DNA of 64,000 nt from Alphaproteobacteria bacterium (lineage in GTDB: Bacteria > Pseudomonadota > Alphaproteobacteria > Bin95): contig CBDBGH010000003.1 of assembly GCA_965205265.1 (NCBI GenBank), positions 5,152,001-5,216,000 of the forward strand. Direction: 5' to 3'. The translations under genes were made by a program, and so were the position numbers. The notes beneath the pieces were generated by a model. The model was not told the origin of the DNA, did not search any database, and was given only the letters and a program-made list of their open reading frames with translations. Each line of letters opens with the position of its first letter. Within the stretch, counting starts at the first letter, position 1. Below are positions 26,347 to 63,499 of this stretch, piece after piece.

Positions 26347-27654
26347 CTACGGCTCCAGACGTTCCGCCTCGGCGGCCTCCGCACGCTGCGCCCAGTAACG
26401 GTCCTCGACCGCTGCACATGCCCCGCGCAACCGCTCCAGCTCGTCAGTGTCCGGAACTTCCTCCGGTGAAATCGTCGGGATCCCCTCGCCGCCATCCATC
26501 TCGAGCAGGGGACGCCGGTCCACCGTCTCCCAGGAATAGAAATAGTGCATCCCGTATCCCGGCTCGCGCACCAGAATCACGTCTCGCTCGTCCGCGCTCG
26601 CGAGCGACACCTCATACTGGTAGCGCTCCCCGACCGAGTCCTGGATCACCGTGCCCAGCTTCTCGACGGCCTTGTCCACCCGGGGGCCGCTCAGGACCTC
26701 GTCGCGGTCCCTGAACGCCTGGATCACCGTATCGTATTCCTCACGCTCCAGAATGCCGACCGCCAGATCCTCTATCGCCGTCTTCGTAAGCGGACGGAAA
26801 ACCTGCCTGCACAGGGCGCCATTCGTCCGCACCGCCTGGCGCAGCATGTTGTCGTCCACCAGCATCGGGCCGGTCGGCGCCCGCACCGTGACCCCGGCAT
26901 CCGCCCGGGCCGTCACGCCGCGCTCCCCGAGAACGCCGTTCATGCCCTCGGGACTCGCTCGGCCCGCATCCGCGTTCGCCGGATCGAGAACCCGAATGCG
27001 CTCCCGCAGCATCCTCGCCTCCAGATACCGGTCGAGTCCCTCGGGAACCGGGGCATCGCGCAGGTTCTCGAGGACGTTCATCATCAGCCCGGTCTGGTCG
27101 AAGGACCGGCTCTGCGTCCGCTCCCCTATATCGCCCACGAACACGCGCAGCGTCCCGATCAGCCCTCGGCGGAGATCCTCCTCGATCACCTCGTGCGCCC
27201 TGTCCGAGTGCAGCCAGGAATGCAGCCGAAGCATGATCGCCGCGTTGTTGCCCCCCTCCGCAATCAGGGGGATGTTGCCGTCCTGCTCGGCCCGCTCCAC
27301 GTCGCCCTCGATATTGCGCGTGTTCCGCAGCGTGTAGAGGACAGGCTCCATCCCATCCCCGTCCTCCTCCGCATCCGGAGCCTCGTCCGCCTCCGGCACA
27401 ATCACCGTCGCCCTGGTCGCGCCATCCTCGCTGCGCCAGATCGCCAGACCCATGCCGGGGTCCATGTCCACCGCGTAGGCAGCCGGGTCGTCGTCCTCGC
27501 TCTCCCGCAGGACCGCCGCCGACGGCAGTATCACCTGGGCGTTCGTCCTGTACGCCGTCTCCGCGTCATGACGCGTCGTCGCGAACGACTGATACGCCTC
27601 CTTCGCCTTCTCCATCAGGACGCTCACATTGATGCGCATCGCTCTCTTCTCCAA
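26347..27654 (-). CDS. Hypothetical acidic protein
   Basis: Long ORF with RBS and GC-rich third positions; no recognisable motif. Confidence 0.75.
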   Translation of the reverse strand: MEKRAMRINVSVLMEKAKEAYQSFATTRHDAETAYRTNAQVILPSAAVLRESEDDDPAAYAVDMDPGMGLAIWRSEDGATRATVIVPEADEAPDAEEDGDGMEPVLYTLRNTRNIEGDVERAEQDGNIPLIAEGGNNAAIMLRLHSWLHSDRAHEVIEEDLRRGLIGTLRVFVGDIGERTQSRSFDQTGLMMNVLENLRDAPVPEGLDRYLEARMLRERIRVLDPANADAGRASPEGMNGVLGERGVTARADAGVTVRAPTGPMLVDDNMLRQAVRTNGALCRQVFRPLTKTAIEDLAVGILEREEYDTVIQAFRDRDEVLSGPRVDKAVEKLGTVIQDSVGERYQYEVSLASADERDVILVREPGYGMHYFYSWETVDRRPLLEMDGGEGIPTISPEEVPDTDELERLRGACAAVEDRYWAQRAEAAEAERLEP

Positions 27655-27731
27655 TCGCGGTCCGCTGCTCCGTCACATCCCCGAACCTAAAAGGGGGGTG
27701 TGAAAACGCCAAACCCGAAACCCTGCCGCCA

Positions 27732-29384
27732 TCAATCCCAGGGCGACGGAGCCGGCAGGGTCTCCGCGCCGGGGCCCTCTATCCCCAGACGTCGAGCCCA
27801 GAAGGCAGCCGACGCCATCTCGTGGTTCTGCTCCGCATGCTGGCGCAATTCCATCCAGCAGCGCCCGAGAAGATTCTCCCCCACCAGACGCTCGCCCCTG
27901 GGAACAGCGCCCCAAAACCCGTCGCGGCGCGAGATCTCGACGATCGGCAATCCCCCTGTCCTCTCGAACTCCCGGTCAACCCCCGCAGGGTCCGCCTCCC
28001 GTTTCAGACGAATGGCCCATCTCATCACATCCAGCCGGCGGTCCTCCCAGCCCTCCACCGGGATGTTCGACGGATCGCGGCCGATCTCCGCCGCCCGCTT
28101 CGCCGTCGGCGCGGCCGCAATGAGATCCTGCACCTCCCGCGAATGCGGAAACTTCGCGAACATGTGATAGACATGCTCCGACGTCGGCAATTCCCACGGG
28201 CCGAGCCGGATCGGCTCTTCCAGCGGATAGAAGTTCGAGAACCGGCCCCACTCCGCGCGCGTGAACCGGAACGCGCAAACCCCGGATGGCTCATAGACCC
28301 GCGCGCCGCCGGCGCGGTCCTCCGGCGAATCCGAAAACGACCGCCTGGCCGACGTCACGGACCGATGCAGGGCCTCCATCGAATTGCGGACCTGCAACTC
28401 CGCCGTCTTGCCAAGGTTCAGGACCGGAATGCCATACCGCGACGCAATCAGGAGCCCCATCCCCGTGCCACCGGACACCGCGCCTCCGGCCGTCCAGCAA
28501 ACAACCGCATCCACAGGGCGGTCCAGCTCCGGGCCCAGAAGAATCGCGACATTGCGCGCATGCAGGCGCCGGGCACCCTGCGAGCACCGCTCCCACGCCG
28601 GGTGCAACGAAGCGGCAATCTCCACACAGCGCCCGAATGCAGGACGGTCCAGGACAAAGCAGTCCGGACCCTCCAGACCGTTGTAGCCCTCCCAGGGAAG
28701 CAACAGCTGGCGCTGCGAAGGCGGCACGCCGTCCTGGAAGGCGCTGTCCGCGCCCTTGGCGCCGCCGGTGCGCAACAGCCAGCCCTCCGACGCCCAGGCG
28801 GCTGCCATCAGCCGCATCGACTCCAGGACGGCGGGAGGAGTCTCCCGCGATCCGATGCCGGCATAGGCCGGCCTGCGCTGCCTGAACATCGAGTTCACTC
28901 CCTTCCCTCCTTGCTCCGGGGCGGTCGCCCGCGGTTGCATCACCGTCACGATCCCGGGAGCCATTCCCCCCAGTTCCCTCTCTATCAGTCCCTTCACAAT
29001 TCCCCAGTCCAGTCCGCCGAGTCCCGCACCCAGCGCCGGGACGGCGACCGAACCGATCCCTCTCCTCTCCAATTCCCGCCGGAGGCTCCTCAGCCCTTCC
29101 TCTACATCCCCGGCGCGGCTGCGGTCGCGCCAGTGCCTCTTGGTCGGGAAATTCACGATATAGCGCGGCAGCGTCCCTTCCCCCCGGTCGAACACCATGA
29201 CCCGGCCGGGGCGCATCGCATTCCGCCCGCAGGCCGCCCTGTATGCCTCGAAATTCTCCGGAAACCGTCTTCGGAACTCAAGCGCGAGCCCCTTCCCCAT
29301 CACCCCGACGCAATTCACCGGATTGACCAGCGCCTCGGCGCCGGTCTCGAAAATGTCGCCTTCCGTGAAAACAGGGCCGGCCAT
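27732..29384 (-). CDS. Macrodomain (DarG-like) + SLOG/DprA-like + NADAR fusion
   Basis: NPVNCVGVMGKGLA...NFPTKRHW...PALGAGLGGL; YAGIGSRETP...LRTGGAKGADSAF...GGTG; FSNFY...TSEH...FWG...GENLLGRCWMELR. Confidence 0.85.
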   Translation of the reverse strand: MAGPVFTEGDIFETGAEALVNPVNCVGVMGKGLALEFRRRFPENFEAYRAACGRNAMRPGRVMVFDRGEGTLPRYIVNFPTKRHWRDRSRAGDVEEGLRSLRRELERRGIGSVAVPALGAGLGGLDWGIVKGLIERELGGMAPGIVTVMQPRATAPEQGGKGVNSMFRQRRPAYAGIGSRETPPAVLESMRLMAAAWASEGWLLRTGGAKGADSAFQDGVPPSQRQLLLPWEGYNGLEGPDCFVLDRPAFGRCVEIAASLHPAWERCSQGARRLHARNVAILLGPELDRPVDAVVCWTAGGAVSGGTGMGLLIASRYGIPVLNLGKTAELQVRNSMEALHRSVTSARRSFSDSPEDRAGGARVYEPSGVCAFRFTRAEWGRFSNFYPLEEPIRLGPWELPTSEHVYHMFAKFPHSREVQDLIAAAPTAKRAAEIGRDPSNIPVEGWEDRRLDVMRWAIRLKREADPAGVDREFERTGGLPIVEISRRDGFWGAVPRGERLVGENLLGRCWMELRQHAEQNHEMASAAFWARRLGIEGPGAETLPAPSPWD

Positions 29385-29386
29385 CG

Positions 29387-29797
29387 CTACGGCGAAGGAC
29401 TCGGCAGCCCATCATCGGCATCCGGAAACCCGGCGCGGCGGGCCGCGTCATCCAGCTCGTCCCCCTCTTCAACAATCCGGCACGCCCGGCGCGCCGCAGA
29501 GCAATAGACGGAAAGCGGATATTTGGCCTCGAAGAAACGGTCGCGCTCCACCGCCAGACCCATAGGGCCCTTCAAGGATTCCAGCTCGCTTAGCCGGATA
29601 CTACCCGGTTCCGGGAATCCCATCCCCAGGTCGGCCAACCCGAACAGAAGATCGCGGTCCTCGGAATCCATCCGCGCAATGAGCCAGGTGCAGGGCCCGT
29701 CCGGCGTGAAGAACTTCACGACCGGGCAGTGATCGCCGCCACGCTCCTGTCCGTTCCGCAACAGAAGACGCTCGATGTCCTTGGTCACCAGCTTCAT
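29387..29797 (-). CDS. DUF2958-family protein
   Basis: PVVKFFTPDGPCTWL...LFGLADLGMGFPE...ERDRFF. Confidence 0.8.
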   Translation of the reverse strand: MKLVTKDIERLLLRNGQERGGDHCPVVKFFTPDGPCTWLIARMDSEDRDLLFGLADLGMGFPEPGSIRLSELESLKGPMGLAVERDRFFEAKYPLSVYCSAARRACRIVEEGDELDDAARRAGFPDADDGLPSPSP

Positions 29798-29817
29798 GGC
29801 CAGGTCACTCCTCTTTT

Positions 29818-30810
29818 TCACGGCCCCGCCGACGGCGTAGCCGCCAAGGGCGCGAACAGCGCTTCCCGGTCCACGCCCTCCGCAACGATCTCCGAGAGGT
29901 CGGCCCCGTCGAACCTCGCGTCCTCCACCCGACTCCAGGACAGGTCCGCCCCGAACAGATAGGCCTCCCGGAAATCCGCGTGGGTCATGTCCGCCGACAC
30001 CATGCGGACATGCGGAAAATACCCGTTCGCGAGCACGGCCGACCTCATGTCGGCCCGGCTGAAATCCGCATCGCGGCACTGCGCGCCCGTCATCCGAGCC
30101 CCCGAGAGCAGCGCGGAATCCAGCTTTGCGCGGTACAGGACCGCCCCATCGAGACCCGCCTCGCGCAAATCGCAACCCGTCATCACGGCATCCGCAAGCC
30201 CGGCTTTCCCGAGACTCGCCCGGGCCATCCGTGCCCCCACGAACGTGGCGCCCGGAAACCTGCCCTCCTCCATGACGGCCCCGGCCATGTCCGCCCGGAC
30301 GAAATTGGCCCCGGCGGCCATAATCCCCGTCATCCGGGCGCTGGACAGGACCGCATCCAGAAAACAGGCTCCTTCGGCACAGGCGTTCCGGAATCTCGCC
30401 CCGGTCAGGTCCGCCTGGATAAAATCCGCCCTGCCCAACTCGGCGGACACAAAACTCGCGTCCGTCAATTTCGCTTCCCGGAACAGGGCGCCGACAAGGT
30501 CGGCTTCGTCAAACAGCGTCCCGACGAGCGAGGCACGGTGAAACTTCGCTCCGCCCAGTCGTGCCCCGCGGAAATCCACGCCGTCCAGACGGGCATTGTA
30601 GAAGGACGAACACAGGCCCTTCAGATCGCGCAGCATCGCCGAGGTCAGGACCGCGGAATCCAGCCTCGCCCCGGTCAGGTCCGCACCGCGGAAATCCGAG
30701 CCGCTCAGGTCAAGGCCGCTCAGGTCGGCGCCGGCCATGTCCACATCCCGGAAATCGCGCTCACCGGCCGCATAGCGGGCAACAAGCTCCTCTCGGGAAA
30801 GCTCATGCAC
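29818..30810 (-). CDS. Pentapeptide-repeat protein
   Basis: N-cap ELVARYAAGERDF then A(D/N)(L/F)xx repeats. Confidence 0.92.
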   Translation of the reverse strand: MHELSREELVARYAAGERDFRDVDMAGADLSGLDLSGSDFRGADLTGARLDSAVLTSAMLRDLKGLCSSFYNARLDGVDFRGARLGGAKFHRASLVGTLFDEADLVGALFREAKLTDASFVSAELGRADFIQADLTGARFRNACAEGACFLDAVLSSARMTGIMAAGANFVRADMAGAVMEEGRFPGATFVGARMARASLGKAGLADAVMTGCDLREAGLDGAVLYRAKLDSALLSGARMTGAQCRDADFSRADMRSAVLANGYFPHVRMVSADMTHADFREAYLFGADLSWSRVEDARFDGADLSEIVAEGVDREALFAPLAATPSAGP

Positions 30811-30946
30811 TCGAAAATCCCCTCCTCGCCTTCCGGCGGCACGTCGATGCGCCGCCTCTCTCCCAAGCTCCCGTCATGCAGGGAATCCCTGAAAATTCAA
30901 AACCGCCGGGCACCGCGGCGGAAGCCGCCCGCCCGCACGTCCGGGC

Positions 30947-31480: not shown

Positions 31481-32049
31481 GGCCCGATGTCGTCCTCCGG
31501 CAATATCCCGGCAGCCATGCCCGCCACGCCGTCGAGGCGGGCTCCGGCGAAGTCCGATCCTGCCGCAACCGCACCGGTAAAGTCCGCCCGGTCGAGCCAG
31601 GCGTCCCGGAAGTCGGTTCCGTCCAGACGGGCCTGCCGGAAAAGAGCCCGGCACATCCGGGCTCCCTCAAACCTGCCGCCGGTCAGATTGGCCCCGGTGA
31701 AGTCGGCGCCCGAGGCGAACAGACGCCGCGCGTCCGCGCCGCGCAGATCGGACCGCGCCAGCTTCGCGCCTGCCAGGGTCGTCTCCGCCAGACACAGGCC
31801 GACCAGGATGGCGTCGGTAAAGTCGGCTCCGTTCAGATTGGCGCCGAAGGCATCCGCATCCGTCAAGTCCGCGCCGGCAAGCACGATCCCCGGCAGGTTG
31901 GCGGCCCGCAGGCGGGCCCTGGTCAGATTGGCCCCGGCGAGATCGAGGCCCGGCAGGGAGACGGAAAGAAGGTCGATTCCGCGCAGGTCCACGCCCCGGA
32001 ATTCGCGGCGTCCTTCCTTGTAGAGGCCGAGCAGTTCCCCGAGGGTCAT
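31456..32049 (-). CDS. Pentapeptide-repeat protein
   Basis: MTLGELLGLYKEGRREF plus repeats. Confidence 0.9.
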   Translation of the reverse strand: MTLGELLGLYKEGRREFRGVDLRGIDLLSVSLPGLDLAGANLTRARLRAANLPGIVLAGADLTDADAFGANLNGADFTDAILVGLCLAETTLAGAKLARSDLRGADARRLFASGADFTGANLTGGRFEGARMCRALFRQARLDGTDFRDAWLDRADFTGAVAAGSDFAGARLDGVAGMAAGILPEDDIGPCGTAFTP

Positions 32050-32858
32050 CGACGCGGCCGGGGCGTCGGCAACCCGTGGCCGGAACCCGCCGGCGTCGGC
32101 ACATGGCCTCCGGGGACGAGGATCGTCCCCTCCAGGCGGGCCCCGGAGAGGTCCGCGCCATCGAAATCCGCTCCCTGCAGCTCGGCGTCCGTCAGAATGG
32201 CTCCGGCGAGCTTCGCCCCCCGGAAATCCGAGCCTCTCAGGTTGCACCCGGAAAGATTGGCCCCCTCCATGCAGGCTCCGGTGAAGTCGGCCCCGCGCAG
32301 GTCCAGCCCGCGCAGGTCGACACGGGAGAGATCGACACCACGGAAGTCCCTCTCGCCGGCGGCGAAGCGCCGCCGGATATCTTCCGCGGTGAGCTTCTGA
32401 AGCCGCCCTGCCCCACCCGGGACGAGAGCCATCTCCTCCATCCCGCTCTCCCCGTCGCCGTCCATCTGTCCCGCGGCTTCCTGCTCTTCGTCCCGGGCGG
32501 CCTCCGCGGCGCGCTGCTCGTCGTCGCGCATGAACACGCCGCGCATGTTTGCTCCGTCAAACCGGCATCGGGAGATATCCGTGTCGCGGAAATTCGCCCC
32601 GGTCAGGTCCGCCTCGCGCATGTCGGATCCCGCGAAAAGCGTCCCGGCCGCGCTCGCCCCTACAAAACAGGCCCCGCGGAAATCCCCGTCTCTCATGTCC
32701 GCCCTGGAGAGCAAAGCCCCGGTCATGTCTGCCCCGGGGAGCCTGATCCCGGGCAGTCGCGCCCCGCGCAGATCGACGAATCTCAGCACCGCATTGCTGA
32801 AGTCGCGCTGGCCCGCCGCGAACCTGGCAAGAAGCATTTCAGCGGTCATGACCGACAT
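32046..32858 (-). CDS. Pentapeptide-repeat protein with two modules
   Basis: Two N-caps (RFAAGQRDF, RFAAGERDF) separated by an acidic linker. Confidence 0.9.
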   Translation of the reverse strand: MSVMTAEMLLARFAAGQRDFSNAVLRFVDLRGARLPGIRLPGADMTGALLSRADMRDGDFRGACFVGASAAGTLFAGSDMREADLTGANFRDTDISRCRFDGANMRGVFMRDDEQRAAEAARDEEQEAAGQMDGDGESGMEEMALVPGGAGRLQKLTAEDIRRRFAAGERDFRGVDLSRVDLRGLDLRGADFTGACMEGANLSGCNLRGSDFRGAKLAGAILTDAELQGADFDGADLSGARLEGTILVPGGHVPTPAGSGHGLPTPRPRR

Positions 32859-35862: not shown

Positions 35863-36375
35863 TCAAACCGGTGCGCCGCCGAAGGGAGACGGTTCGGGTG
35901 CGCCCGACACCGAGGCCTCGTCCAACGGAGAGACGACGGGCTTGAAAGAGCTTTCCGGCCACGGGCCACCCCGGTCATCGAACAGCAGCACAGCACCGTT
36001 CCGGTCGATAGTGACCGAGCCGAATGATCCTTCATTCAACTCCCAGCCTGGGTGCTCAGTCCCCAGCAGCGAGAACATATACCAATCGAGGGCGTCTCTC
36101 AGGGACCGGGGCTCCTCTATCCCGACCCGTTCGGCTGTCCAGTCCGAGGGATCCCTTGTGGGATGAATTTCCCGAACGTCCTGGAGCCCGGGAATCAGGA
36201 AGTCGGTGTTCCTCTCCGCCGGTTCGAGAAGAACCTCCCCGATCTGGCCATCATCACCGAATCCTTCGTATTTGACGGTCACGGCCGATATTTCCCGCTC
36301 CTGCAGAGCCTTGATAATGCAGGCCAGGTTGTGCCCGCAGGCCGCCCTGTAGATATCGGGAATTGTCTGTGTCAT
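35863..36375 (-). CDS. DUF6878-like protein
   Basis: VTVKYEGFGDDGQI...HPGWELNEGSFG; paralogue of 37885-38394. Confidence 0.7.
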   Translation of the reverse strand: MTQTIPDIYRAACGHNLACIIKALQEREISAVTVKYEGFGDDGQIGEVLLEPAERNTDFLIPGLQDVREIHPTRDPSDWTAERVGIEEPRSLRDALDWYMFSLLGTEHPGWELNEGSFGSVTIDRNGAVLLFDDRGGPWPESSFKPVVSPLDEASVSGAPEPSPFGGAPV

Positions 36376-37661: not shown

Positions 37662-37888
37662 GGCGTCGAACGCACCTCGCCAGCTTCGATCCGGCTGCCC
37701 GTGAAATCGGCCCCTGCCATGGCGGCCCTGCGGAACCGGTAGGCGGACAGGGGTGCGCCCCGGAAGATGGCTCCTGTCAGATCGACATCCGGGAGTTCGA
37801 GGCCCTCAAGATCTTGCTCGGAGAAGTCAGTGCCGCGGAAATCATGTACGCCCGTAGCGAAGCGCTCCAGAAGCTCCTGCGGCGTCAT
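37658..37888 (-). CDS. Short or remnant pentapeptide-repeat protein
   Basis: MTPQELLERFATGVHDF plus a few repeats; ATGA-coupled on both sides. Confidence 0.65.
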   Translation of the reverse strand: MTPQELLERFATGVHDFRGTDFSEQDLEGLELPDVDLTGAIFRGAPLSAYRFRRAAMAGADFTGSRIEAGEVRSTP

Positions 37889-38394
37889 CCGGTTGCGCTT
37901 CCGTCGCCCTGCGGAGAGGGTTCCGGCAGGCCGCCTCCTGCATCGAGCGGGGACGACTGAGGCGTGTCCCCGCCGCTCTCATGCTCGATGTGACGCGTAT
38001 AGAAGTCGATTTCGGCACCGGCCGGGGTGATCTTGAACGCCCCGAAGGACCCGTCATCCAGTTCCCAGCCGGAATGCTCGAGAAACAGATAGTCCATGCA
38101 GTAACGGTCAATGGCGTCGTCCAGGTCCATCGGCCCGAGGGCGGTTCGCTCGGCATCGGGCGAATACGGCGGCCCCCCGCTGATCGTCTGCAATCCCTCG
38201 ATTATCCTCTGCGTGAGAGGAATGTCCGGAGGGGAGGTGATGATCTCCTCGACCATTCCGTTGTCCCCTTCTCCGTTGAACCGGGCCGTGATCTCGTCAA
38301 TGCCGCTTGCCTGCATGGTCTCGATTATGAGAGCCAGGTTGTGGCGGCTCGCAATCCGGGCGGGAAGGGGCTGTTGCTCCTGAAGGTCGTTCAT
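37885..38394 (-). CDS. DUF6878-like protein
   Basis: ARFNGEGDNG...HSGWELDDGSFG. Confidence 0.7.
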   Translation of the reverse strand: MNDLQEQQPLPARIASRHNLALIIETMQASGIDEITARFNGEGDNGMVEEIITSPPDIPLTQRIIEGLQTISGGPPYSPDAERTALGPMDLDDAIDRYCMDYLFLEHSGWELDDGSFGAFKITPAGAEIDFYTRHIEHESGGDTPQSSPLDAGGGLPEPSPQGDGSATG

Positions 38395-40814: not shown

Positions 40815-41402
40815 ATGCCGCAAGACAGCTCCTTGCCCCGAGTGGACTTCAGGCACGGCCGCCGCCCAGGACTCGTCTTCTGCGAGGCAACCGTGCAGAT
40901 CGGTGACGAGAGGACCGTCGAGACATTCTACGGAGCGGACGGCTTTGTCGCCGCCCATGACTGGGCGGCGGAACTGGTGCGTCCGGTGATCGGCGAGGTT
41001 ACCGCAACCCGTCTCGCGGCGCGGGTCGCCGATCTCTGGAGGGCGGGGTTCACCAAGGAGGCCCACGCCGTCGACGCGGCAGGGAAGCAGGTCTCTCCGT
41101 TCGCCGACGAGGCCTGCGCCTGGAACTACCACGGCGCGGTCGAGCGGGCCTGCTACGAGTTCATGGTCGACAGGGGCCTCGACGACAACGGCCCGGATGT
41201 CCAGTTCGTCAATCTCCTCGAGGGTGAGTTCGGGCGGCGATATCCTGAAATGGTCAGCGGGCAGAGCGATGAATGGGGGGACTGGTGGCTTGAGGATGTT
41301 ATCGCCCGGCCGGAAATCACCCAGAAGACGATGATCGAGTTGGCAGAGGCCGTTCGGGACCTGCCGCAAGCTGTCCCGGGCGACGGGATGTCGCCCCCCT
41401 GA
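40815..41402 (+). CDS. Hypothetical protein
   Basis: ORF with RBS; ends GDGMSPP. Confidence 0.6.
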   Translation: MPQDSSLPRVDFRHGRRPGLVFCEATVQIGDERTVETFYGADGFVAAHDWAAELVRPVIGEVTATRLAARVADLWRAGFTKEAHAVDAAGKQVSPFADEACAWNYHGAVERACYEFMVDRGLDDNGPDVQFVNLLEGEFGRRYPEMVSGQSDEWGDWWLEDVIARPEITQKTMIELAEAVRDLPQAVPGDGMSPP

Positions 41403-47378: not shown

Positions 47379-48296
47379 CTAGCGCGGCGAGGGTTCCGGC
47401 GGCCAGTCGTCATCGTTGCTGAGCCGGACCTGCGCCAGGTCGTTGAACTGTTTGATGTGGGGCGAAAGAGTGGCCCCGCGCAGGTCGGCGAGAGCGAAAT
47501 TCGAGCCGACGAGCGTGGCTGCGGACAGATCTGTGTCGCGGAAATCCGCACCGCCGAAATCGACGAACTTGAGATGGGCGCCCTCCAGAACGGCGTCACG
47601 CATATAGGCGTCGCGGAAGACAGCGAGACAGACCTCGGTAGTGAGGACCCCCTCATCATCCACAGGGAGCGTCCCGGGCGGCAGCGTGTAAGCTCCCTTC
47701 AGACAGGCCTCAAAAAACGTGCCGGCAGTGAAATCGCCACCCTCTATCCGCCCTGTCACTGTGCTTCGGGTGAAGTCGGCCTTCTTGGCGGAGACATGAT
47801 CCAATGCTGCCTCGGACAAGTCGGCGAAGCGCAGCGAGGCTCCCTGGAGCTTCGCATGCGAAAGCGTCGCCTCGAAGGCGGCGGCGTGGTCGAGGTTGGC
47901 CCCGCGGAGATCCGCGTCTGTGAGGTCGGCCCGCGTGAGCAGCGCCCTGTCCAATTTGGCCTCTCTGAAATCTCCGGCCGCCAGCGAGGCCCCCTCCATC
48001 CGGGAGAAGGACATGTCTGCATGATGGAATATCGCCCCCGGGGCGATCATGCCGGCCATATCGGCGTTGGTGAGATTGGCTCCGATGAAGTCGGTGTCCA
48101 CTGCTCGGATACCGCGCAGGATTGTCCGCCTCAGGCTCGTGCCGGCAAAGCTCGTCCCACTGAAGTCCAGCGCCTTGGCAAGTTCGTCGCGTTGTGCGCT
48201 GAAGTCGAGCCCCGACAGGTCCAGGCCCGAGAAGTCCCGCTCCCCGTCCGCCAGGCGCTGGATCACCTCTTCTGCCGTGAGACGCGGTTTGGACAT
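47379..48296 (-). CDS. Pentapeptide-repeat protein
   Basis: MSKPRLTAEEVIQRLADGERDF; ends PPEPSPR. Confidence 0.92.
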   Translation of the reverse strand: MSKPRLTAEEVIQRLADGERDFSGLDLSGLDFSAQRDELAKALDFSGTSFAGTSLRRTILRGIRAVDTDFIGANLTNADMAGMIAPGAIFHHADMSFSRMEGASLAAGDFREAKLDRALLTRADLTDADLRGANLDHAAAFEATLSHAKLQGASLRFADLSEAALDHVSAKKADFTRSTVTGRIEGGDFTAGTFFEACLKGAYTLPPGTLPVDDEGVLTTEVCLAVFRDAYMRDAVLEGAHLKFVDFGGADFRDTDLSAATLVGSNFALADLRGATLSPHIKQFNDLAQVRLSNDDDWPPEPSPR

Positions 48297-52908: not shown

Positions 52909-52991
52909 CGGCTGTCTGTAGAGGGGCCGTTTCGGGTTTTCATGTCGGCGGGGTAGGCTTTGTGTCGGTCTTGCAGGGAAAACGGCTGGCG

Positions 52992-53582
52992 ATGATCCTG
53001 AGTGAGTTCAGGCAGGCCTATGAAGCCGGAAGGCGGGATTTCTCCGGCGAGGTTCTGGCTGACGTGAACTTCGAGGGCCGCGACATGGAGGCGGTCAACT
53101 TCTCCGGCGCCGATCTGCGTGGCAGCCGGTTCCGGGACTGCCGGCTGGTAGAAGTGAGGTTCGACAGGGCCGACATGCGGCAGGCCGACCTGGCCGGCGC
53201 CTGGATCGAGGGGTGCCGGTTCGAGGAAGCCGAGATGGCGGACAGTGGACTGCCCGAGGCGCGGGTGTTCGATACCGATTTCCGGCACGCTTGGCTTCTG
53301 GGCGCCGATCTGCGCGGCGCGAGGGTCCGCGACTGCTCTTTCGTGGAGACGGACATGAGGCCGAGCGACCGCGCGAGAACCCGGGCGGACAATGCGCTGT
53401 TCGAGAATTCGGACTTCGAGGGCTCGATGGTGTCGGAGATGTCCTTTGCGGGAGTGCTGCTCCAGGGGTGTGCGGGCGAGCCTGCGCTGAGCGACGGAGC
53501 GGATTTCACGAATTGCCGGGCAATCCCGCGGCCGCCGGAGCCGGGTCCCGGGCCGGAACCGGACGCGGGGCCGACGCCATAG
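52992..53582 (+). CDS. Pentapeptide-repeat protein
   Basis: AYEAGRRDF cap; Pro-rich tail. Confidence 0.9.
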   Translation: MILSEFRQAYEAGRRDFSGEVLADVNFEGRDMEAVNFSGADLRGSRFRDCRLVEVRFDRADMRQADLAGAWIEGCRFEEAEMADSGLPEARVFDTDFRHAWLLGADLRGARVRDCSFVETDMRPSDRARTRADNALFENSDFEGSMVSEMSFAGVLLQGCAGEPALSDGADFTNCRAIPRPPEPGPGPEPDAGPTP

Positions 53583-55767: not shown

Positions 55768-56673
55768 ATGCTGCACGGGCTGAAGATGACCGAGGAGGAT
55801 GTCCGGAAGCGTCTTCAGAGAGGCGAGAAGAACTTCGCCGGCTGCGACTTCTCGATTCTCGATCTCGGCGGCCTCGACTTCTCGGGCTGCCGTCTCGACC
55901 GAGCACAGTTCAGGAGCTGCATTCTGGATCTGGAGAAGGCCAATCTGCGCGGGGCGGACATCAACGGCGCGGATTTCACCGGGGCGGCCTTGAGCGGGGC
56001 GTGCCTCGACGCCGCCCGGGGCGTCGGGGCGCGGTTCGCCGGGGTTGTGTTGCGTGAGGTCAGCATGGTGCGGGCCGACATGACGGAAGCGGATTTCAGC
56101 CGGGCCGACCTGACCGGCTCCAATCTCTACGGAACCCGCTTCCTGCGCGCGAACGCAGTCGAGGCGGTCATGCGCCGGGTCGAAGCACGCCGATCCTGTT
56201 TCATGGATGCGGACATGCGCAAGGCGGACATCGCGGATGGCCGCTTCGACCATGCGGTGCTGGACGCCGCCGACATGCGCGGCGTGTATGGTCCGGAGGC
56301 ATTCTTCACCGGGGCATCCATGCACATGGCATGCCTTGAGGAAGCGGTGCTCGACGATGTGAGGATGGGAGAGGCCGATCTCGGGTCGGCGAGCCTGCGA
56401 AACGCGGAAATGTCGGGCGCCCGTCTTTCCAGGGCCCATATGTCCGGCGCAGACATGTGCGAGGCCAAATTGCAGGGAGCCGATCTGGAGGAAGCGACCT
56501 GCGCCGGTGCGTCTTTCCTGGGTGCGGACCTGTCGGAAACGAATTTCAGGAACGCCCATTGGGACGAGGCCGCCGATTTCTCCGGAGCCCGGGTGACCGG
56601 GGCGCATTTCACCGGAGGGGCAGCGCCGCCGGGCGCCGTTCAGGATGAACCGGCGCCAGCGCTTGCGTCCTGA
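55768..56673 (+). CDS. Pentapeptide-repeat protein
   Basis: RLQRGEKNF cap plus repeats. Confidence 0.92.
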   Translation: MLHGLKMTEEDVRKRLQRGEKNFAGCDFSILDLGGLDFSGCRLDRAQFRSCILDLEKANLRGADINGADFTGAALSGACLDAARGVGARFAGVVLREVSMVRADMTEADFSRADLTGSNLYGTRFLRANAVEAVMRRVEARRSCFMDADMRKADIADGRFDHAVLDAADMRGVYGPEAFFTGASMHMACLEEAVLDDVRMGEADLGSASLRNAEMSGARLSRAHMSGADMCEAKLQGADLEEATCAGASFLGADLSETNFRNAHWDEAADFSGARVTGAHFTGGAAPPGAVQDEPAPALAS

Positions 56674-57435: not shown

Positions 57436-58395
57436 GTGAGAGGTCAACGTCCCTACAGGGAAATCCTGATGGAGCAGGCCGTGGTCATCAAGGACGCCCT
57501 CTGCGCCGATGTGGCGGCGTGGAACAGGGTCTTCGACGCCGGCGACGAAGAGCGGGCCGATGCGCTTCGCGCGGAAATGGCGGAGGGAGTCGCGCATGCG
57601 GTCGCGTTTCGGGTCAGTGACGGGTCCTGGCATTGGGAGTGGGGGCTGGCCGGCGCTCGTTTAGGCAGTGTCGATGTTCGCATGACCGGCCCGGTCGGGA
57701 AGGATGGCGAGATTGCCGATGCCACCCTGCAATGCCTGCAGGACGGCGCCTGGACCGATGTGCCCTGCACAGAGGACGAGAAAGCGCTGCTTTACGATGC
57801 GGCGCTCTTTGCGCTCGGGAATTGCGACAGCCTCATAGAGGAGGCGGTCGAGGAGGAGATCGACGAAGGCTTGCGGGACGGGCTGTCAGAGTTCTATTCG
57901 ATGCCGGTGGATCCGGGACGCGGCGAGGGCGATGGAAGCCCGCAGGCAGACGCGGTGCGCCACAATGTGGCGGTCGTCTGCGGTGCCTTGGAGGAGAACC
58001 GGATCGGTGGCCTCGTGGCCGCGTTCGGAGGGGAGGCAGGCGAGGGATCGGTTCGGATAGATCTGCCGAAGGCAGAGTGGATATTCGCGCTTCCCGTTCG
58101 GGGCCTTCTGGAGGACACCGGAGAGGGGCTGGCGGCTCCCCGGCCGGACATGCGTCTCGACGCGGCCGTGGCGTTTGTCGGCGCGGAAGTCCTGGACTCG
58201 CTCTACGGAGGAGAGTGGAAGGAGGGAGACGGCGCGCTCGGCAGGATCGTCTTCATGGACGACAAGGCGAGGGTGATGTGCGGGTCTCGGGCGGTTCTGG
58301 CCGAAGACCCGGCCGCGCGCTGGGACCGAGCGGAGATCGGAGGCCGTCATCTCCGTCGCCTCCCTGAGGAGGGAGGCCTTTCGCCTTCGCCATAG
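57436..58395 (+). CDS. Hypothetical protein; C-terminal half resembles a degenerate DUF6878-like domain
   Basis: RHNVAVVCGALEENRI..AAFGGEAGEG...GEWKEGDGALG; ends LSPSP. Confidence 0.65.
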   Translation: MRGQRPYREILMEQAVVIKDALCADVAAWNRVFDAGDEERADALRAEMAEGVAHAVAFRVSDGSWHWEWGLAGARLGSVDVRMTGPVGKDGEIADATLQCLQDGAWTDVPCTEDEKALLYDAALFALGNCDSLIEEAVEEEIDEGLRDGLSEFYSMPVDPGRGEGDGSPQADAVRHNVAVVCGALEENRIGGLVAAFGGEAGEGSVRIDLPKAEWIFALPVRGLLEDTGEGLAAPRPDMRLDAAVAFVGAEVLDSLYGGEWKEGDGALGRIVFMDDKARVMCGSRAVLAEDPAARWDRAEIGGRHLRRLPEEGGLSPSP

Positions 58396-58681
58396 GGGCG
58401 CGGGATGCCCGGTATTTTCCCGGTTCGGAGACTTGTCCGGAGCCGCAGAAGGAGAAACCCTCATGTCGGAAGCGGGCCCATCCATTACCCTGACCGGGCT
58501 GCAGGAGCGCTACAACGCCGGCGAACGGGACTTCCGGGGGATTTCCGCACGCGGCCAACGTATCCGGAATATCGAGGTTCCCGGCGCGGACTTCAGCGGT
58601 GCGGATTTCAGCGGCGTCCACATCGAGGCGACGTGCGATTTTTCCGATTGCCGGCTGGACGATGCGGATTTCAGCCATAGC

Positions 58682-58881
58682 AGGATCGCTCGCGGGCATT
58701 TCATCCGCTGCGGTATGCAGCGGGCAAATCTGGAGGGGGCCCGGTTTCGCCAGCCCCTGTTCACCAAGGCCGATCTGAGCGAGGCCAATTGCAGGGAAGC
58801 CTATCTATGGGGCAGCGGCCTGACAAGCGCCTCTTTCAGGAATGCCGACCTTACGGAAGCGCTCGTCTCAAGGACAGATCT
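58682..58881 (+). repeat. 200-bp target-site duplication, left copy
   Basis: AGGATCGCTC...GACAGATCT repeated at 60798-60997. Confidence 0.93.
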
Positions 58882-60797
58882 CCTGACTTCGACGGTTGGG
58901 CTGACTTCTGACCGATCTCGCGTCTGGAGTTTTCAGTAAAGCCAATGAGTTGGCAGTTGCGGTGCGGTCAAGCTGCGTTGTAGTGCCTAGTAAATCTTTG
59001 AGACTGTCAATGCCTCCGCCACGCGCTACACTCCCCCCATGTTCGTGCGCATCAAGACCTCCCCCAACAGCCCGCGACGCTCGGTCCAGATCGTCGAGGC
59101 CGTGCGCGACGGCGGCAAGGTCCGACAGCGCATCGTCCGCCATGTCGGCGTGGCCATGGACGAGGACGAGCTCGAGCGCCTGAGGCAGCTCGGCGAGTAC
59201 GTCAAGGCGAAGCTGGAGGACGAGCGTCAGCCGGCATTGTTTGCGCCCGAGAAGATCGCTGAGCAGGCGATCCGTGTCGGCCGCCGGGGGGACGGCAAGG
59301 AGGAACTCCCGGTCGACCTCAAGCAGCTTGAAGAGGAGCAGCGCCTGATCACAGGCATCCACGAGGTCTATGGCGAGATCTACCGGCTGCTGGGCCTCGA
59401 CGCGCTGCTGCCGCGCTCGCGCTACCGGGCCTCCCATGACGCGCTGTTCCATGTGGTGATGGCGCGGGTAGCCAACCCCGACAGCAAGCGGGGCAGCGTG
59501 CGCCGGCTCGAGGAGGACTTCGGCGTGAGTCTTCCGCTCGAGAAGGTCTACCGGATGATGGATCAGCTCGACGCGACGGTGATCGAGCGACTGCGCACGC
59601 GCGTCGGCGAGGCGAGCCGGTCGCTGCTGCCGGAGCCGGTCGCGATCCTCTTCTTCGATTGCACCACGCTCTACTTCGAGACGGCCGCCGAGGACGAGCT
59701 TCGCCAGCACGGCTTCAGCAAGGACGGCAAACACAAGGACTCGCAGGTTCTGCTGGCGCTGATGGTGACGCGCGAAGGGCTGCCGATCAGCTACGAGGTC
59801 TTCCCCGGCGCCACCTACGAGGGACACAGCATGGTCCCGGTCCTGCAGGACATGCAGCGCCGCCACCAGGTGGAGCGCACGGTATGCGTGGCCGACCGGG
59901 GCATGCTGAGCGCCGACAACCTCGACGCCATGGACGCCATCGGCGGCGAGTATGTCGTCGGCGCGCGGCTGCGCAAGCTGCCGCTCGCGCTGCTGGGGCA
60001 GGTTCTCGACCCCGGGACCTATGCCCCGCTGGAGGGCTCACAGGACCGCCGGGTCGGCGAGTGGGAGTACAAGGGCCGTCGCCTGATCGTCGTCTTCTGC
60101 CCCCAGCGCGCACGCAAGGACGCGCACGAGCGCCGCCATCAGGTGGAACGCCTGCTCGACAGGCTGGCCCGCAGCGACAATCCCAGGGAACTGCTCTCCA
60201 ATCACGGGGCGAAGCGCTTCATCGCCGTCGAGGGCGACGCACGGCTCACGGTGAACCCGGAGAAGATCGCCGAGGCCGCACGATGGGACGGGCTCACCGG
60301 CGTCATCACCAATCTGCGCGACGCGCGCGTCACCGAAGTGATGGCTCACTACCAGGGGCTCTGGCAGGTCGAGGAGAGCTTCCGGATCACCAAACACGAC
60401 CTGAAGATACGTCCCATCTGGCACTGGAACCCGGACCGGATCCGCGCTCACATCGCCATCGCCTTCCTGGCCTTCGCCTGCGTTCGACACCTTGCGTACC
60501 GCGTCGCCATCCAGAAGCGGCGGATGTCCCCGGAGGTCATCCGCTCCGCCCTCGTCCACCGCCAGTGCTCCCTGCTGCGCTGTCGGCAATCGGGCAACCG
60601 CTACGTCATCCCCTCGAAGCCGACACCGGCGGCGGAGCAGATTTACGCAACCATGGGGCTGCCCCTGACGATCACCCCGTATCAACTCGCCTGACCGTCG
60701 ACGAAGCACGGCTCGAAGAAATGCCGGATGTAGTGCCTAGCCGAAATGAGAACCAGGCAATATCAACTACTTATGCGAATCAACCGTCGAAGTCAGG
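58882..60797 (+). mobile_element. IS1634-family element, copy 2
   Basis: Same IRs and identical transposase translation as copy 1. Confidence 0.93.
59039..60694 (+). CDS. IS1634-family DDE transposase
   Basis: Identical to 51150-52805. Confidence 0.93.
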   Translation: MFVRIKTSPNSPRRSVQIVEAVRDGGKVRQRIVRHVGVAMDEDELERLRQLGEYVKAKLEDERQPALFAPEKIAEQAIRVGRRGDGKEELPVDLKQLEEEQRLITGIHEVYGEIYRLLGLDALLPRSRYRASHDALFHVVMARVANPDSKRGSVRRLEEDFGVSLPLEKVYRMMDQLDATVIERLRTRVGEASRSLLPEPVAILFFDCTTLYFETAAEDELRQHGFSKDGKHKDSQVLLALMVTREGLPISYEVFPGATYEGHSMVPVLQDMQRRHQVERTVCVADRGMLSADNLDAMDAIGGEYVVGARLRKLPLALLGQVLDPGTYAPLEGSQDRRVGEWEYKGRRLIVVFCPQRARKDAHERRHQVERLLDRLARSDNPRELLSNHGAKRFIAVEGDARLTVNPEKIAEAARWDGLTGVITNLRDARVTEVMAHYQGLWQVEESFRITKHDLKIRPIWHWNPDRIRAHIAIAFLAFACVRHLAYRVAIQKRRMSPEVIRSALVHRQCSLLRCRQSGNRYVIPSKPTPAAEQIYATMGLPLTITPYQLA

Positions 60798-60997
60798 AGG
60801 ATCGCTCGCGGGCATTTCATCCGCTGCGGTATGCAGCGGGCAAATCTGGAGGGGGCCCGGTTTCGCCAGCCCCTGTTCACCAAGGCCGATCTGAGCGAGG
60901 CCAATTGCAGGGAAGCCTATCTATGGGGCAGCGGCCTGACAAGCGCCTCTTTCAGGAATGCCGACCTTACGGAAGCGCTCGTCTCAAGGACAGATCT
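60798..60997 (+). repeat. 200-bp target-site duplication, right copy
   Basis: Matches 58682-58881. Confidence 0.93.
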
Positions 60998-61843
60998 GGA
61001 TAGAGCCGATTTCACCGGCGCCGTTCTTGACCATGCATCCTTCAACTTCTGCAAGGGAGATCATGCCGGTTTTGCAGGCGCCAGTCTTCGTCATACGGAT
61101 TTTGCCGGAAGCAGGCTCAGATGGGCCGATTTTGCGGGTGTAGAGATGTTTGCAACCCGCATGGAATCGACCAATCTTGCCGGAGCCCGTATGGCGGAGG
61201 CGACGATCTCGAGCGCCGGGTTCGACAACAGTTTCCTGCCCGGTACATCGTTCAGCCGCACGAAGATCTCCTCGTGCAGCTTCAAGGAGGCCCATATGCG
61301 CGCGGTTGACATGACCGGCGCGAAACTCATTCAGGCGATGTTCGAAAAGTCGGATCTGAGCGAAGCTAATTTTGAAGGGGCGACTATGGATGGCGTTGTG
61401 TTCTGTGAAACGGACATGACCCGGGCCCGCTTGACTGGCATAGACGCCTTTCCCCTCTGCTGGTTCGAGAAGAACATCCTGGAAGACGCAGAAGTCCCGG
61501 ATGGTTTCCCCGAGATGATCGAGAGGCTGAACCGTCAACAACGCGAACGTGACCGCCTGCCCGAACCGTCCCCGTTGGGAGCCGGCAGATGATTGCCGGC
61601 GCTTGTCCGCAAAAGATGCCTCGACCCGAACAGCAGGTTATTGAGATTGGCCTCCTGTGCCGGATGCCTTGATGGAGGCCGGTGTCAACTGAAGCCTGTT
61701 TGGGTTCCGTGCCTCCCGGCCTCGATGAACAGGATCACGATAATTTCGCACCTGGACCACCATAAGGAAGAGATAAATGGCGGTTGCGCAGAACCTGTGG
61801 TATGGCCCCGGCTCCGGCTGAACAGGGAAGGACAGACAGCCTC

Positions 61844-62119
61844 ATGATCGATGAAACGAACCTTACCAAGGGGCAACTGCGAAAGCTGAACGCGCTTCGG
61901 AAATCCGTCGGCGATGCCATCGCCGATGAGGCGTTTTCCAAGTGGCTGGCACAACATGGCAATGAGTCCGAGGCCGTCGACGGCAACGCCGATATCATCG
62001 CCGATACGCTCTGGCGACTGGTGGAACAGGGCAAGTTGGCAATTCGGCGCGGCGGTTATGTCGTTCGCCGGGGCCGCGGGCGTGTCATCGTCGAGATGCC
62101 GGCGGGATCCGCCGGTTAG
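61844..62119 (+). CDS. Small hypothetical protein
   Basis: MIDETNLTKGQLRKLNALRKS...; AAGGA RBS. Confidence 0.6.
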   Translation: MIDETNLTKGQLRKLNALRKSVGDAIADEAFSKWLAQHGNESEAVDGNADIIADTLWRLVEQGKLAIRRGGYVVRRGRGRVIVEMPAGSAG

Positions 62120-62668
62120 CGGGTTCTTGAGCCCGGTCCGCTTACGGCGGGCCGGGCCGTTTTTGAGTTCCCGAGAGATTCTGGATAACCATTTTGTGTT
62201 TGAGAGAAGTCCGGTGAAGATTTCGGGGGGAAAACCGTATATGGGGAATTCCCCCGCCAGTTTGGCGCCCCCCTCTTGTGCGCCCGGCCTGAACGCTTCG
62301 ACGATGTAGCGCTGTTCGAACACTTTGCGCCGGAGTTAAATTCTCTCCCGCCGAAACTCGGCGGCATCCGCGCTCCGGACCGCGAAATGGTTGCAGGCCG
62401 AGGCGTCAACCTGCCAGTCCCTCCTGCCTATCTTGGAGAGGCTGTCCGCCGCCTCGGCCATATAGGTTGCGACGTTGCGGATGAACCGTCCATAGTCTTC
62501 GGCAGAGAGGTTTGGAATTTCTGTGAGAATCGCACCGGCGTTCCCTGCAAATCGTTGAAGCGACAGACTAACGTCCTTCCGTTCGCCGAACTTCAAGGTG
62601 GCGTGCCGCGGGGACGGCGAGGTCGCGCCGTGCTACAATGGCGCCTGCGTGAGGAAAGAGCGCCGCTC

Positions 62669-63499
62669 ATGAGCATGATCGACATGTCGTTCGCGTCCGG
62701 CATTCCGCCGGTTCCCGCTTGCGCGGGCCCGTCGGTATCGGCCGTGACCGAGACGAGTTCGCTGGGGTCCCGCACCCTGGTGCTGCGCGGCACATCGGCG
62801 GACATCGCCGCCCTGCTGGACCGAATGGACGAGTGGCGGGGCGATGCGGGACGCCTGTTTGCCGATGTGAAAGCAGGACTGATCGCGCTGATGGCACCGT
62901 CATGGCCGCATGAGAACTACGGCGATGGCGTCGGTGACCTGGTCAAGACGATCGCGCGCGTCGGTGGTCTCCCCGTTATGGGCGGCGGCTCCTGGACACT
63001 CGGCCCGCGCAAGTCGCCAAAGGGTGGCGGGCTTGTGCCCGGAGACCGATCGCAGGCGGAACCCGACGCCTGCTACATTTTCGGCGAAAAAGTGCTGCGG
63101 GCGCGCACCGCCATCGCTGCCGGACAGAAGGCGGTGGAGGATGATTTCGGGGAGAAGGAACTGCCGGATCTTGTGGTCGAGGTGGATTTTACCAGCGCTT
63201 CGGCGAACAAGCCGGCCTTCTACCGTAGCCTTGGGATCCCGGAGATGTGGCGTCTGCGCTGGTCTGGACCGGAGTCCGCCGAAGCGCTGACGGTGGAAAT
63301 ACTCGACCTCCAGGCCGAGGCCGGGCCGGAGACGAAGCGGGCTGCCTCGGCGCTGCTGCCGCTGTGTACGCCGGAATTTGTGGTGGCGGCGCTGCCGGCG
63401 GCGAGAGGCGGCGACTGGGAAGCCCTTGATGCGCTGGTCGCCGAAGCAGTGGCGGCGGCGAAAGCCGACGCTCTGCCGGAGCCGTCTCCGTTCGACTGA
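62669..63499 (+). CDS. Uma2-family (PD-(D/E)xK) endonuclease-like protein
   Basis: MAPSWPHE, AEPDACY, PDLVVEVDFTS, YRSLGIPEMWR; extended -10 TGCTACAAT at 62631. Confidence 0.82.
   Translation: MSMIDMSFASGIPPVPACAGPSVSAVTETSSLGSRTLVLRGTSADIAALLDRMDEWRGDAGRLFADVKAGLIALMAPSWPHENYGDGVGDLVKTIARVGGLPVMGGGSWTLGPRKSPKGGGLVPGDRSQAEPDACYIFGEKVLRARTAIAAGQKAVEDDFGEKELPDLVVEVDFTSASANKPAFYRSLGIPEMWRLRWSGPESAEALTVEILDLQAEAGPETKRAASALLPLCTPEFVVAALPAARGGDWEALDALVAEAVAAAKADALPEPSPFD

Follow-up and report, generated by a model that had tools for sequence, protein, structure and literature searches.

Why should unrelated proteins encoded by one stretch of a bacterial genome end in the same short proline-rich peptide? 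The question is raised by 64,000 nucleotides of alphaproteobacterial DNA (the window), which cover positions 5152001-5216000 of contig C3 in a genome of 5.70 Mb with 68% GC that is assembled into three contigs. A scan of all six reading frames of the window identifies five copies of the pentapeptide PEPSP. Each copy is positioned 1-8 residues upstream of a stop codon, and the open reading frames (ORFs) that bear the copies are open for 170-425 codons upstream of the motif. According to Pfam, the five genes belong to three families: two encode DUF6878 proteins, two encode pentapeptide-repeat proteins, and one encodes a Uma2 protein (Table 1). The scan and the family assignments confirm the observation of the first-pass annotation of the window that PEPSP is located close to the stop codons of five genes from three families, and the positions match those listed there. 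The close variants that it listed, LPAPSPWD, LPSPSP, and LSPSP, are all present at the ends of window genes, and the variant carriers with Pfam matches are a macro-NADAR fusion and a DUF2958 protein. The analysis described here, with a probability of about 45%, favours reading the tail as a C-terminal recruitment or translocation signal for an I-type/type IVB secretion system that, by analogy with known systems of this kind, would use the tagged proteins as cargo.

The PEPSP sequence is the sharpest form of a much broader C-terminal pattern. Genes were predicted with a crude in-house codon-likelihood caller, which identified 4934 genes; the calls in a public collection for three of the tailed genes (P0001, P0153, and P0256) have identical ends. 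In the six-frame translation of the whole genome PEPSP occurs 33 times, and seven copies, all located within C3 5.02-5.216 Mb, are no more than 12 residues away from the stop codon that closes an ORF of 80 codons or more. The pattern P.PSP is found within the last 20 residues of 14 of the 4934 genes, compared with 1.6 expected from its rate in protein interiors, and all 14 genes are located at C3 4.99-5.27 Mb. The C-termini that are common in this region cover a wider range, including ...GPGP, ...APSP, ...APTP, ...GPEP, ...LPEPxx, and ...PGL. Proline occupies position -1, and likewise position -3, in 24% of the region proteins, compared with about 8% elsewhere. When C3 is divided into 100-kb bins, bins 48-52 contain, per bin, 12-24 proteins in which P.P occurs among the final six residues, whereas every other bin contains 0-6.

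The tails are concentrated in an island of some 590 kb, rich in insertion sequences (IS), which extends from an integrase pair at C3 4,734,547-4,737,038 to integrases at about 5,322,257-5,325,578. The first-pass annotation had spoken of a separate replicon, but the region is an island inside the 5.46-Mb contig C3. Expectation-maximisation was applied to the C-terminal 20 residues of the 463 single-copy proteins of the island and, when started from four seeds, leads to the consensus [GAED][DGPA][LGA]-P-[EGSA]-P, of which LPEPSP(F/W)D is a frequent extended form. The same procedure applied to 463 random tails from elsewhere in the genome produces no comparable motif. At a threshold of 8 bits, the motif marks 102 of the 463 island tails, 44 of 4118 other tails, and 1.2% of segments from the interiors of island proteins. 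In half-island cross-validation, 36 of 220 and 34 of 243 tails are marked, compared with 0.9-1.5% of the 4118 tails from outside. Shuffling the last 20 residues of each tail 300 times leaves P.P in the last six residues of 24.1 ± 4.4 proteins (maximum 39), whereas 95 of the 463 are observed; for P.P as the final three residues, the numbers are 6.5 ± 2.5 after shuffling and 50 of 463 observed. The enrichment that the first-pass annotation anticipated thus holds against the interior rate, cross-validation, and composition-preserving shuffles, and the pattern, with its core [LGA]-P-x-P on 102 proteins, is far broader than PEPSP. The motif forms the exact C-terminus of 36 of the 102 proteins and ends at most five residues from the C-terminus in 85; in the other 17, where it is more than five residues from the end, the consensus is still kept. 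The tails are acidic, with 18% aspartate and glutamate and 7.5% lysine and arginine, compared with 13% and 13%.

Among the 52 genes called in the window, 13 reach the tail threshold, and positions 26347-63499, which hold 34 genes, contain all of them. The looser variants proposed previously fared unevenly: some, for example LPTPRPRR and EPAPALAS, score as tails, whereas LQPSL, TLPSL, ERLEP, DSAEP, and DPAPEAA are below the threshold. The LPTPRPRR tail is basic and the poorest fit to the acidic consensus. Outside positions 26347-63499, the window encodes a FitA-like antitoxin of 80 amino acids with a near-miss end.

It could be argued that the tail codons act in translation or as DNA or RNA, either because proline codons slow termination, possibly through a release factor 2 (RF2) encoded by the island, or because they overlap a ribosome-binding site or a repeat. 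A C-terminal proline is known to slow termination and to provoke transfer-messenger RNA tagging, and the island carries a second prfB, 70% identical to the chromosomal copy. However, the proline codons of the motif (CCG, CCC, CCT, and CCA) differ among the copies and are used as in the rest of the genome, and when the 175-nt gene ends of all 102 tailed genes are compared with one another, four short hits are found, one of which is a paralogue pair. The use of stop codons is unchanged, with TGA in 71% of tailed genes compared with 66-69% of others, and the motif is often several residues ahead of the stop. A co-directional gene begins at most 15 nt downstream of 20 of the 102 tailed genes, which is the same share as for untailed island genes, and therefore the tail codons are not a disguised ribosome-binding site. 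Arginine and lysine are scarce in the tails, the opposite of what wrong-frame ORFs of GC-rich DNA would give. The gene-end, spacing, and stop-codon data rule out a DNA repeat, ribosome-binding-site overlap, and an RF2 or stop-codon origin. A role in translation or at the DNA level is thus very improbable and largely excluded. The tail is selected as a peptide and not as DNA, as the first-pass annotation had concluded from synonymous codon differences.

The 102 tailed proteins form 53 BLAST clusters, which are composed of DUF6878 (16 proteins), ankyrin (16), pentapeptide (14), and Uma2 (4) clusters, three pairs, and 46 singletons. Among the singletons are Fic, HipA, macro-NADAR, and DUF2958 proteins and a helix-turn-helix protein. 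Tails are present on 16 of 26 DUF6878, 14 of 42 pentapeptide, and four of six Uma2 proteins, and the BLAST cluster of the 16 tailed ankyrin proteins holds 23 members. A transmembrane-like segment is found in 6% of tailed proteins compared with 23-26% of others, and an N-terminal hydrophobic stretch in 2% compared with 16-18%, in agreement with the earlier claim that the carriers lack signal peptides. The carriers are predicted from their sequences to be soluble, Sec-independent cytoplasmic proteins. In the one protein for which a model was inspected, the AlphaFold model of the DUF6878 protein encoded at 35863-36375 has a confident fold for residues 1-134, with predicted local distance difference test (pLDDT) values of 88-97 in the domain, whereas the last ~35 residues are low-confidence coil with pLDDT values of 61-63 over the last 20. 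Many carriers are toxin-like, including Fic, HipA, and Uma2 proteins, and some have AbiEii neighbours. Cargo families that suggest defence or anti-defence functions are macro-NADAR, DUF2958, methylases, RNA ligases, and pentapeptide DNA mimics, and the island set also includes a Strawberry-notch-like protein of 1749 amino acids with a PcfJ neighbour.

The tail is rare on the remaining gene classes of the island. It is present on two of 48 non-cargo proteins, namely one of 20 type IVB components, one of 17 second-copy housekeeping proteins, none of seven Cas proteins, and none of four integrases, and it is missing from the multi-copy transposases; the annotation had correctly noted its absence from integrases, transposases, and housekeeping-type genes. 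The relaxase adjoining the island, which had been suggested as a possible carrier, ends in ...GRGGMDLGL and has no tail.

The distribution among families bears on the possibility that the tail is functionless and results from lineage-specific drift of disordered proline-rich ends, spread by duplication in fast-evolving families. Four expanded families account for half of the tailed proteins (16+16+14+4 of 102), and inheritance within families therefore inflates the tailed counts. In addition, codons for proline, alanine, and glycine are favoured by high-GC DNA. However, the remaining clusters (three pairs and 46 singletons) are also tailed, and arginine, another residue favoured by high GC, is depleted in the tails. 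The pattern is position-specific and exceeds that in shuffles of the same residues, and it is nearly absent from island protein interiors and from machinery and housekeeping genes of equal GC content. Drift is also opposed by the retention of the PEPSPFG sequence between DUF6878 homologues that are only 55% identical overall, and it is considered improbable.

Homologues from other organisms indicate that the tail is an addition to the domains that carry it. A full HMMER search of 1.84 billion representative sequences with the DUF6878 protein encoded at 35863-36375 listed about 146 foreign homologues, among which only P0002 and P0030 have the tail; nearly all others stop with the domain. P0002, the homologue that shares PEPSPFG at 55% identity, ends in ...AGLPEPSPFGEATA, and P0030 ends in ...DTDLPEPTPS. 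Eight of 97 Uma2 homologues are tailed by score, three of them from the genome studied here; several further ones have ...PAPGL-type ends, and most stop past the last helix of the family. Six of 120 DUF2958 homologues are tailed by score, one of them from the same genome, and many others have short acidic ends that close in proline. The first-pass annotation had suggested checking whether homologues elsewhere lack the tail, and most of them do in all three families. P0030 is encoded on a 302,850-bp metagenome contig, which probably also encodes the Uma2 homologues P0166, P0181, and P0219 with tail-like ends, since a contig of equal length is recorded for them. P0154, from a 55,746-bp contig, clusters at 90% identity or more with the second Uma2 gene of the island. 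The tailed homologues on these two contigs indicate that related elements exist. A search of genome and metagenome contigs with a two-sequence DUF6878 alignment found no related loci, and a tblastn search of a plasmid collection with the Uma2 protein found only cyanobacterial homologues, with alignments that stop short of the tail.

The sole tail-like cluster outside the island is formed by three Uma2 paralogues on the 193-kb plasmid C1 (Table 1). The PSPFD ending on C1 and on some foreign Uma2 proteins may be partly inherited within the family. The same ends on C1 Uma2 and on foreign Uma2 and DUF2958 proteins would also fit a reader more widespread than the secretion system of the island. It is possible that the tail serves not in transport but as a short linear motif by which its carriers dock to some other shared partner. 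This partner might be a hub protein in the carrier or target cell, for example a chaperone, an adaptor encoded by the island, or a factor that acts in replication, repair, or translation, and docking would gather defence, anti-defence, and effector proteins at one place. The tail is short, terminal, and disordered, and it is present on 53 unrelated clusters. The extended form W-x-P-P-x-P-S-P-F-D recurs across families, in the pentapeptide-repeat gene at 47379, in a Fic protein that ends in ...WEPPSPSPFDDD, and in the foreign proteins P0207, P0182, and P0184. However, docking lacks a candidate partner, the motif is confined in the genome to an island with a type IVB system, and the housekeeping-type island proteins that act on DNA have no tail. 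Docking is unlikely, but it is the most probable of the alternatives to the secretion reading.

The strong preference of the motif for the exact C-terminus, seen in the proline frequencies at positions -1 and -3 and in the 50 proteins that close in P.P, could also mean that the tail sets protein stability. A Pro-x-Pro end with acidic neighbours might guard against C-terminal proteolysis, or it might be a degron for a protease of the island or host that holds potentially toxic proteins at a set level. Many of the carriers are toxin-like, and the island encodes a second ClpS and, amid the type IVB and thin-pilus genes, a protein with a PDZ domain and an M48-peptidase domain. PDZ domains read C-termini, and the PDZ-M48 protein is a possible alternative reader of the tail. 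However, ClpS recognises N-termini, and PDZ domains mostly prefer hydrophobic C-terminal residues. Furthermore, the consensus is kept in the 17 proteins in which it does not reach the last five residues. A stability function is thus hardly likely, although it is rated above drift.

The I-type/type IVB system is encoded at C3 4.75-4.97 Mb, 220-400 kb upstream in the same island. Its identified components are DotB, IcmT, DotC/TraI-like, DotD, DotH, DotI, DotG/TraO, TraQ, a DotO-like ATPase, and DotA/TraY, and the matches include expectation (E) values of 4e-86 for DotB and 3e-76 for DotA/TraY. The coupling proteins, encoded at C3 4924915-4930259, are a DotL-like ATPase of 1163 amino acids (E 8e-106 through TrbC_conju) and a DotM-like protein of 591 amino acids (PF23127, E 4e-29). 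A DsbG-like protein, which is TrbB-like, and thin-pilus proteins PilN/Q/R are also encoded in the region. The Pfam and NCBIfam models identify no IcmS/IcmW-type adaptors in the island system. The VirB4 family PF03135 has no match in the genome, where the ATPases of the F-type and I-type systems are found via other families. Just left of the island, between integrases, is an F-type transfer set that includes TraD as well as a TrwC relaxase, and this adjacent F-type element also carries a TOTE conflict-system primase-helicase (AEP-TOTE, E 1e-96). Other coupling genes in the genome have no tailed genes nearby. The first-pass annotation had placed the delivery machinery outside the window, and this agrees with the presence in the island of a type IVB system that has coupling proteins like DotL and DotM, and with the adjoining F-type set.

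The DotM-like protein, used as a query, has one match in the genome, in the island, and none in 40 relatives searched, 16 of which belong to the same genus. In a sample of 400 other genomes of the class, its family, PF23127, has matches in 27, and these 27 genomes are all small. A search of genome contigs with the DotM-like protein found no related loci, and a tblastn search of a plasmid collection found only matches of 27-29% identity. Legionella DotM is reported to bind acidic C-terminal effector peptides via residues R196/R197, R217, and R314/R315 (PMC5802825). The island protein aligns to the DotM structure 6EXA with an E value of 1e-11 in phmmer. It has arginine at the position of R217 and two arginines at R314/R315 (NRRLWY compared with DRRLWY), with residue numbering based on an offset derived from chain lengths; R196/R197 are outside the aligned stretch. 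A complex prediction that paired residues 125-480 of the DotM-like protein with the C-terminal 40 residues of the Uma2 protein, carried out without controls, has a score of 0.00 and speaks neither for nor against binding.

Substrates of type IV secretion systems are typically recognised via unstructured C-terminal signals. If the tail is such a signal, the cargo would fold in the cytoplasm of the donor, and its exposed acidic Pro-x-Pro tail would be captured by a DotL/DotM-type coupling complex at the inner membrane. The cargo would then move through the channel into a contacted cell, which might be the recipient bacterium in conjugation or possibly a eukaryotic cell. Export is favoured because the tag is limited to soluble, cargo-type proteins, is absent from the machinery, and is confined to the island that holds the only DotM match of the genome, and because the carriers have no Sec signals. 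The conjugative-looking apparatus and the defence and anti-defence cargo favour a bacterial target; a eukaryotic one would likewise be compatible with the genes for ankyrin, Fic, and GPP34-like proteins. The interpretation in the first-pass annotation, that a tagged arsenal is delivered into another cell, is partly supported.

Several observations weigh against a secretion signal. The link between the tail and the type IVB system consists only of co-location and analogy, and the co-location is that of one island in one genome. The relaxase family usual for I-type systems, PF03432, has no match in the genome, and no NikB-type relaxase was found there. The distant I-type region of a Roseomonas mucosa plasmid has no such tails, since only three of its 40 ORFs score marginally, without acidic context. 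The Uma2 paralogues of C1 end in PSPFD although C1 has no DotM match, and several foreign DUF2958 and Uma2 homologues have similar acidic proline-containing ends; therefore, the reader of the motif could be broader than this secretion system. The Pro-x-Pro core is unlike the described glutamate-rich type IVB signal. In addition, the motif is present on only 22-36% of island proteins, and many members of cargo families are untailed, for example 28 of the 42 pentapeptide proteins. A more far-reaching proposal, that a conjugative element of about 590 kb with a second set of replication, transcription, and translation genes injects more than 100 tagged proteins from more than 50 families via the type IVB system, and that the tail represents a new class of signal, is more doubtful than the signal function itself, and is put forward tentatively.

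The island carries dozens of ankyrin and pentapeptide genes and genes for Fic, HipA, and Uma2 proteins, methylases, RNA ligases, and nucleoside deoxyribosyltransferases. It contains second copies, 39-91% identical to the chromosomal ones, of DnaA (39%), DnaB with DciA, DnaG, RpoD (61%), GyrB, ribonucleotide reductase (RNR, class II), ThyX, RF2 (70%), LexA, RecQ, RecJ, RNase H, and ClpS. These duplicates probably explain the 7.3% "contamination" figure of the genome. The start of the island RF2 ORF (TIGR00020, E 4e-124) corresponds to position 47 of the model, which is where it should fall if the frameshift typical of prfB is located upstream. Two CRISPR-Cas sets are present: one of GSU0053/GSU0054 type, and one with Cas9 (1056 amino acids), Cas1, and Cas2, in which an IS element with a 460-amino-acid gene is located between Cas9 and Cas1. 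Two proteins with domains that resemble those of eukaryotes are encoded elsewhere in the island, namely a protein of the GPP34 (Golgi phosphoprotein 3) family (E 8e-44) and a protein with a Thg1-like tRNA-His guanylyltransferase domain.

The left part of the window contains an inverted repeat whose arms, 4,488 nt long and perfectly (100%) complementary, are separated by 4,253 nt. Each arm holds an 879-amino-acid gene, a Slam-like (SlipAM) gene, and a partial integrase, and further integrases are located between the arms; the repeat represents an invertible segment or else arose as an artefact of the assembly. A DDE transposase of 551 amino acids occurs twice in the window, and its BLAST cluster holds 68 proteins. 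The genome carries a very high load of mobile DNA, which also comprises many pairs of IS21-like genes, nine homologues of TrwC-type relaxases, and thirteen of SSB, and this load suggests many integrated conjugative elements.

Table 1. Positions, C-terminal ends, and tail scores of tailed genes and other features. Positions without a contig name are those of the window; contig positions are preceded by C1 or C3.
Feature	Position	Strand	C-terminal end	Codons of PEPSP or close variant	Tail score (bits)
Macro + NADAR fusion, 550 aa	27732..29384	-	...ETLPAPSPWD	27741-27755	9.3
DUF2958 gene	29387..29821	-	...DADDGLPSPSP	29390-29404	11.6
Pentapeptide-repeat gene	32046..32858	-	...GHGLPTPRPRR		9.9
DUF6878 gene	35863..36375	-	...SGAPEPSPFGGAPV	35884-35898	10.7
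Ankyrin-repeat protein, 403 aa	36414..37625	-	...KASPDTPEP		11.5
DUF6878 gene	37885..38394	-	...GGGLPEPSPQGDGSATG	37912-37926	11.4
186-aa protein without Pfam match	40842..41402	+	...VPGDGMSPP		8.8
Pentapeptide-repeat gene	47379..48266	-	...DDDWPPEPSPR	47385-47399	11.6
Pentapeptide-repeat gene	52962..53582	+	...PEPGPGPEPDAGPTP		11.7
Pentapeptide-repeat gene	55768..56673	+	...QDEPAPALAS		9.5
308-aa protein without Pfam match	57469..58395	+	...EEGGLSPSP	58381-58392	8.0 (at threshold)
Pentapeptide-repeat gene (alternative longer start 60831)	61191..61592	+	...RLPEPSPLGAGR	61560-61574	10.2
Uma2 gene (PF05685), 251 aa by chosen start	62744..63499	+	...DALPEPSPFD	63476-63490	10.4
FitA-like antitoxin, 80 aa	19379-19621	+	...REPGREPPSFD		7.2
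Inverted repeat, first arm	759-5246				
Inverted repeat, second arm	9500-13987				
DDE transposase, 551 aa, first copy	51150-52805				
DDE transposase, 551 aa, second copy	59039-60694				
Uma2 paralogue	C1 21675-22427		...APSPFD		
Uma2 paralogue	C1 62753-62977		...SPSPFG		
Uma2 paralogue	C1 64309-65061		...SPSPFD		
TOTE primase-helicase of the F-type element	C3 4,701,776-4,704,223				
PDZ + M48-peptidase gene	C3 4,752,664-4,753,596				
Thg1-like domain protein	C3 4,807,647-4,808,399		...GSRGSPEP		
CRISPR-Cas, GSU0053/GSU0054-type	C3 5,045,981-5,052,738				
CRISPR-Cas with Cas9	C3 5,124,121-5,130,463				
Island RF2	C3 5,228,095-5,229,081				
GPP34 family protein	C3 5,285,727-5,286,389				

The short C-terminal signals that mark type IV substrates are still ill-defined, and predicting the substrates is difficult. 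The island places about a hundred candidates beside a single candidate machine in a genome of cultivable size, and the question of signal and receptor is thus directly testable. If the tail is a secretion signal, it would provide a simple sequence rule for spotting substrates of I-type conjugation, and conjugative elements would be seen to deliver very large arsenals of ankyrin, pentapeptide, Fic, HipA, macro/NADAR, and other proteins. It would also provide a starting point for finding out what DUF6878, DUF2958, and many families without annotation do. Should the whole set be injected, no machine of the conjugation type would be known to have a larger set of tagged cargo. If the tail is instead a docking or stability motif, it would still be a new short linear motif common to more than 50 bacterial protein families.

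The LPxPSP and PEP sequences superficially resemble LPXTG and PEP-CTERM, with which they share the C-terminal position. In LPXTG and PEP-CTERM proteins, which have signal peptides, a transmembrane helix and a basic cluster come after the motif. A sortase or exosortase signal is rejected for the island proteins by the chain ends within five residues of the motif in 85 of 102 and by the scarcity of transmembrane-like and N-terminal hydrophobic segments.

Conjugative plasmids transfer proteins into recipients, such as PsiB and SSB of the F plasmid, anti-restriction proteins, and "polyvalent" proteins, and the island cargo resembles such a defence and anti-defence arsenal. To our knowledge, the substrates transferred by plasmids are few per plasmid, and no Pro-x-Pro tag has been described for them. 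I-type conjugation systems transfer proteins such as primase into recipients, and we know of no common short tag on a large cargo set for I-type plasmids. The island system is like that of the IncI1 plasmids R64/ColIb in its TraQ, TraO/DotG, TraY/DotA, TrbA/DotM, TrbB-like DsbG-type, TrbC/DotL, TraJ/DotB, TraK/IcmT, and PilN/Q/R components, but unlike IncI1 it has no match to a NikB-type relaxase. A close relationship between type IVB systems and conjugation systems of the I type has been stated (PMC9302130).

The tails are also similar to the signals of Legionella and Coxiella Dot/Icm effectors, which are reported as disordered acidic segments in the last ~20-35 residues (PMC5802825, PMC3096851). 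As in Dot/Icm systems, the signal is present on many unrelated soluble proteins, including ankyrin, pentapeptide, and Fic proteins, and DotL and DotM are encoded in the same organism. The island core [LGA]-P-x-P, often at the extreme C-terminus, differs from the glutamate-rich E-block described for Legionella. Furthermore, unlike Dot/Icm, the island system resembles IncI-type conjugation with a thin pilus, and its carriers are clustered in one island and not scattered. Outside Legionellales, Pseudomonas putida IsoF is reported to kill other bacteria with a type IVB system that delivers an effector into them (PMC9519443). One toxic effector is described for IsoF, whereas the tagged set of the island, a set of candidate cargo, has more than 100 members. 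A search limited to an open-access library found no account of the motif, of DUF6878, or of a proline-type type IV signal. As a candidate C-terminal cargo tag in the style of type IV secretion, the tail would belong to a known type, and what is new is the motif itself and its unusually large, clustered set of carriers.

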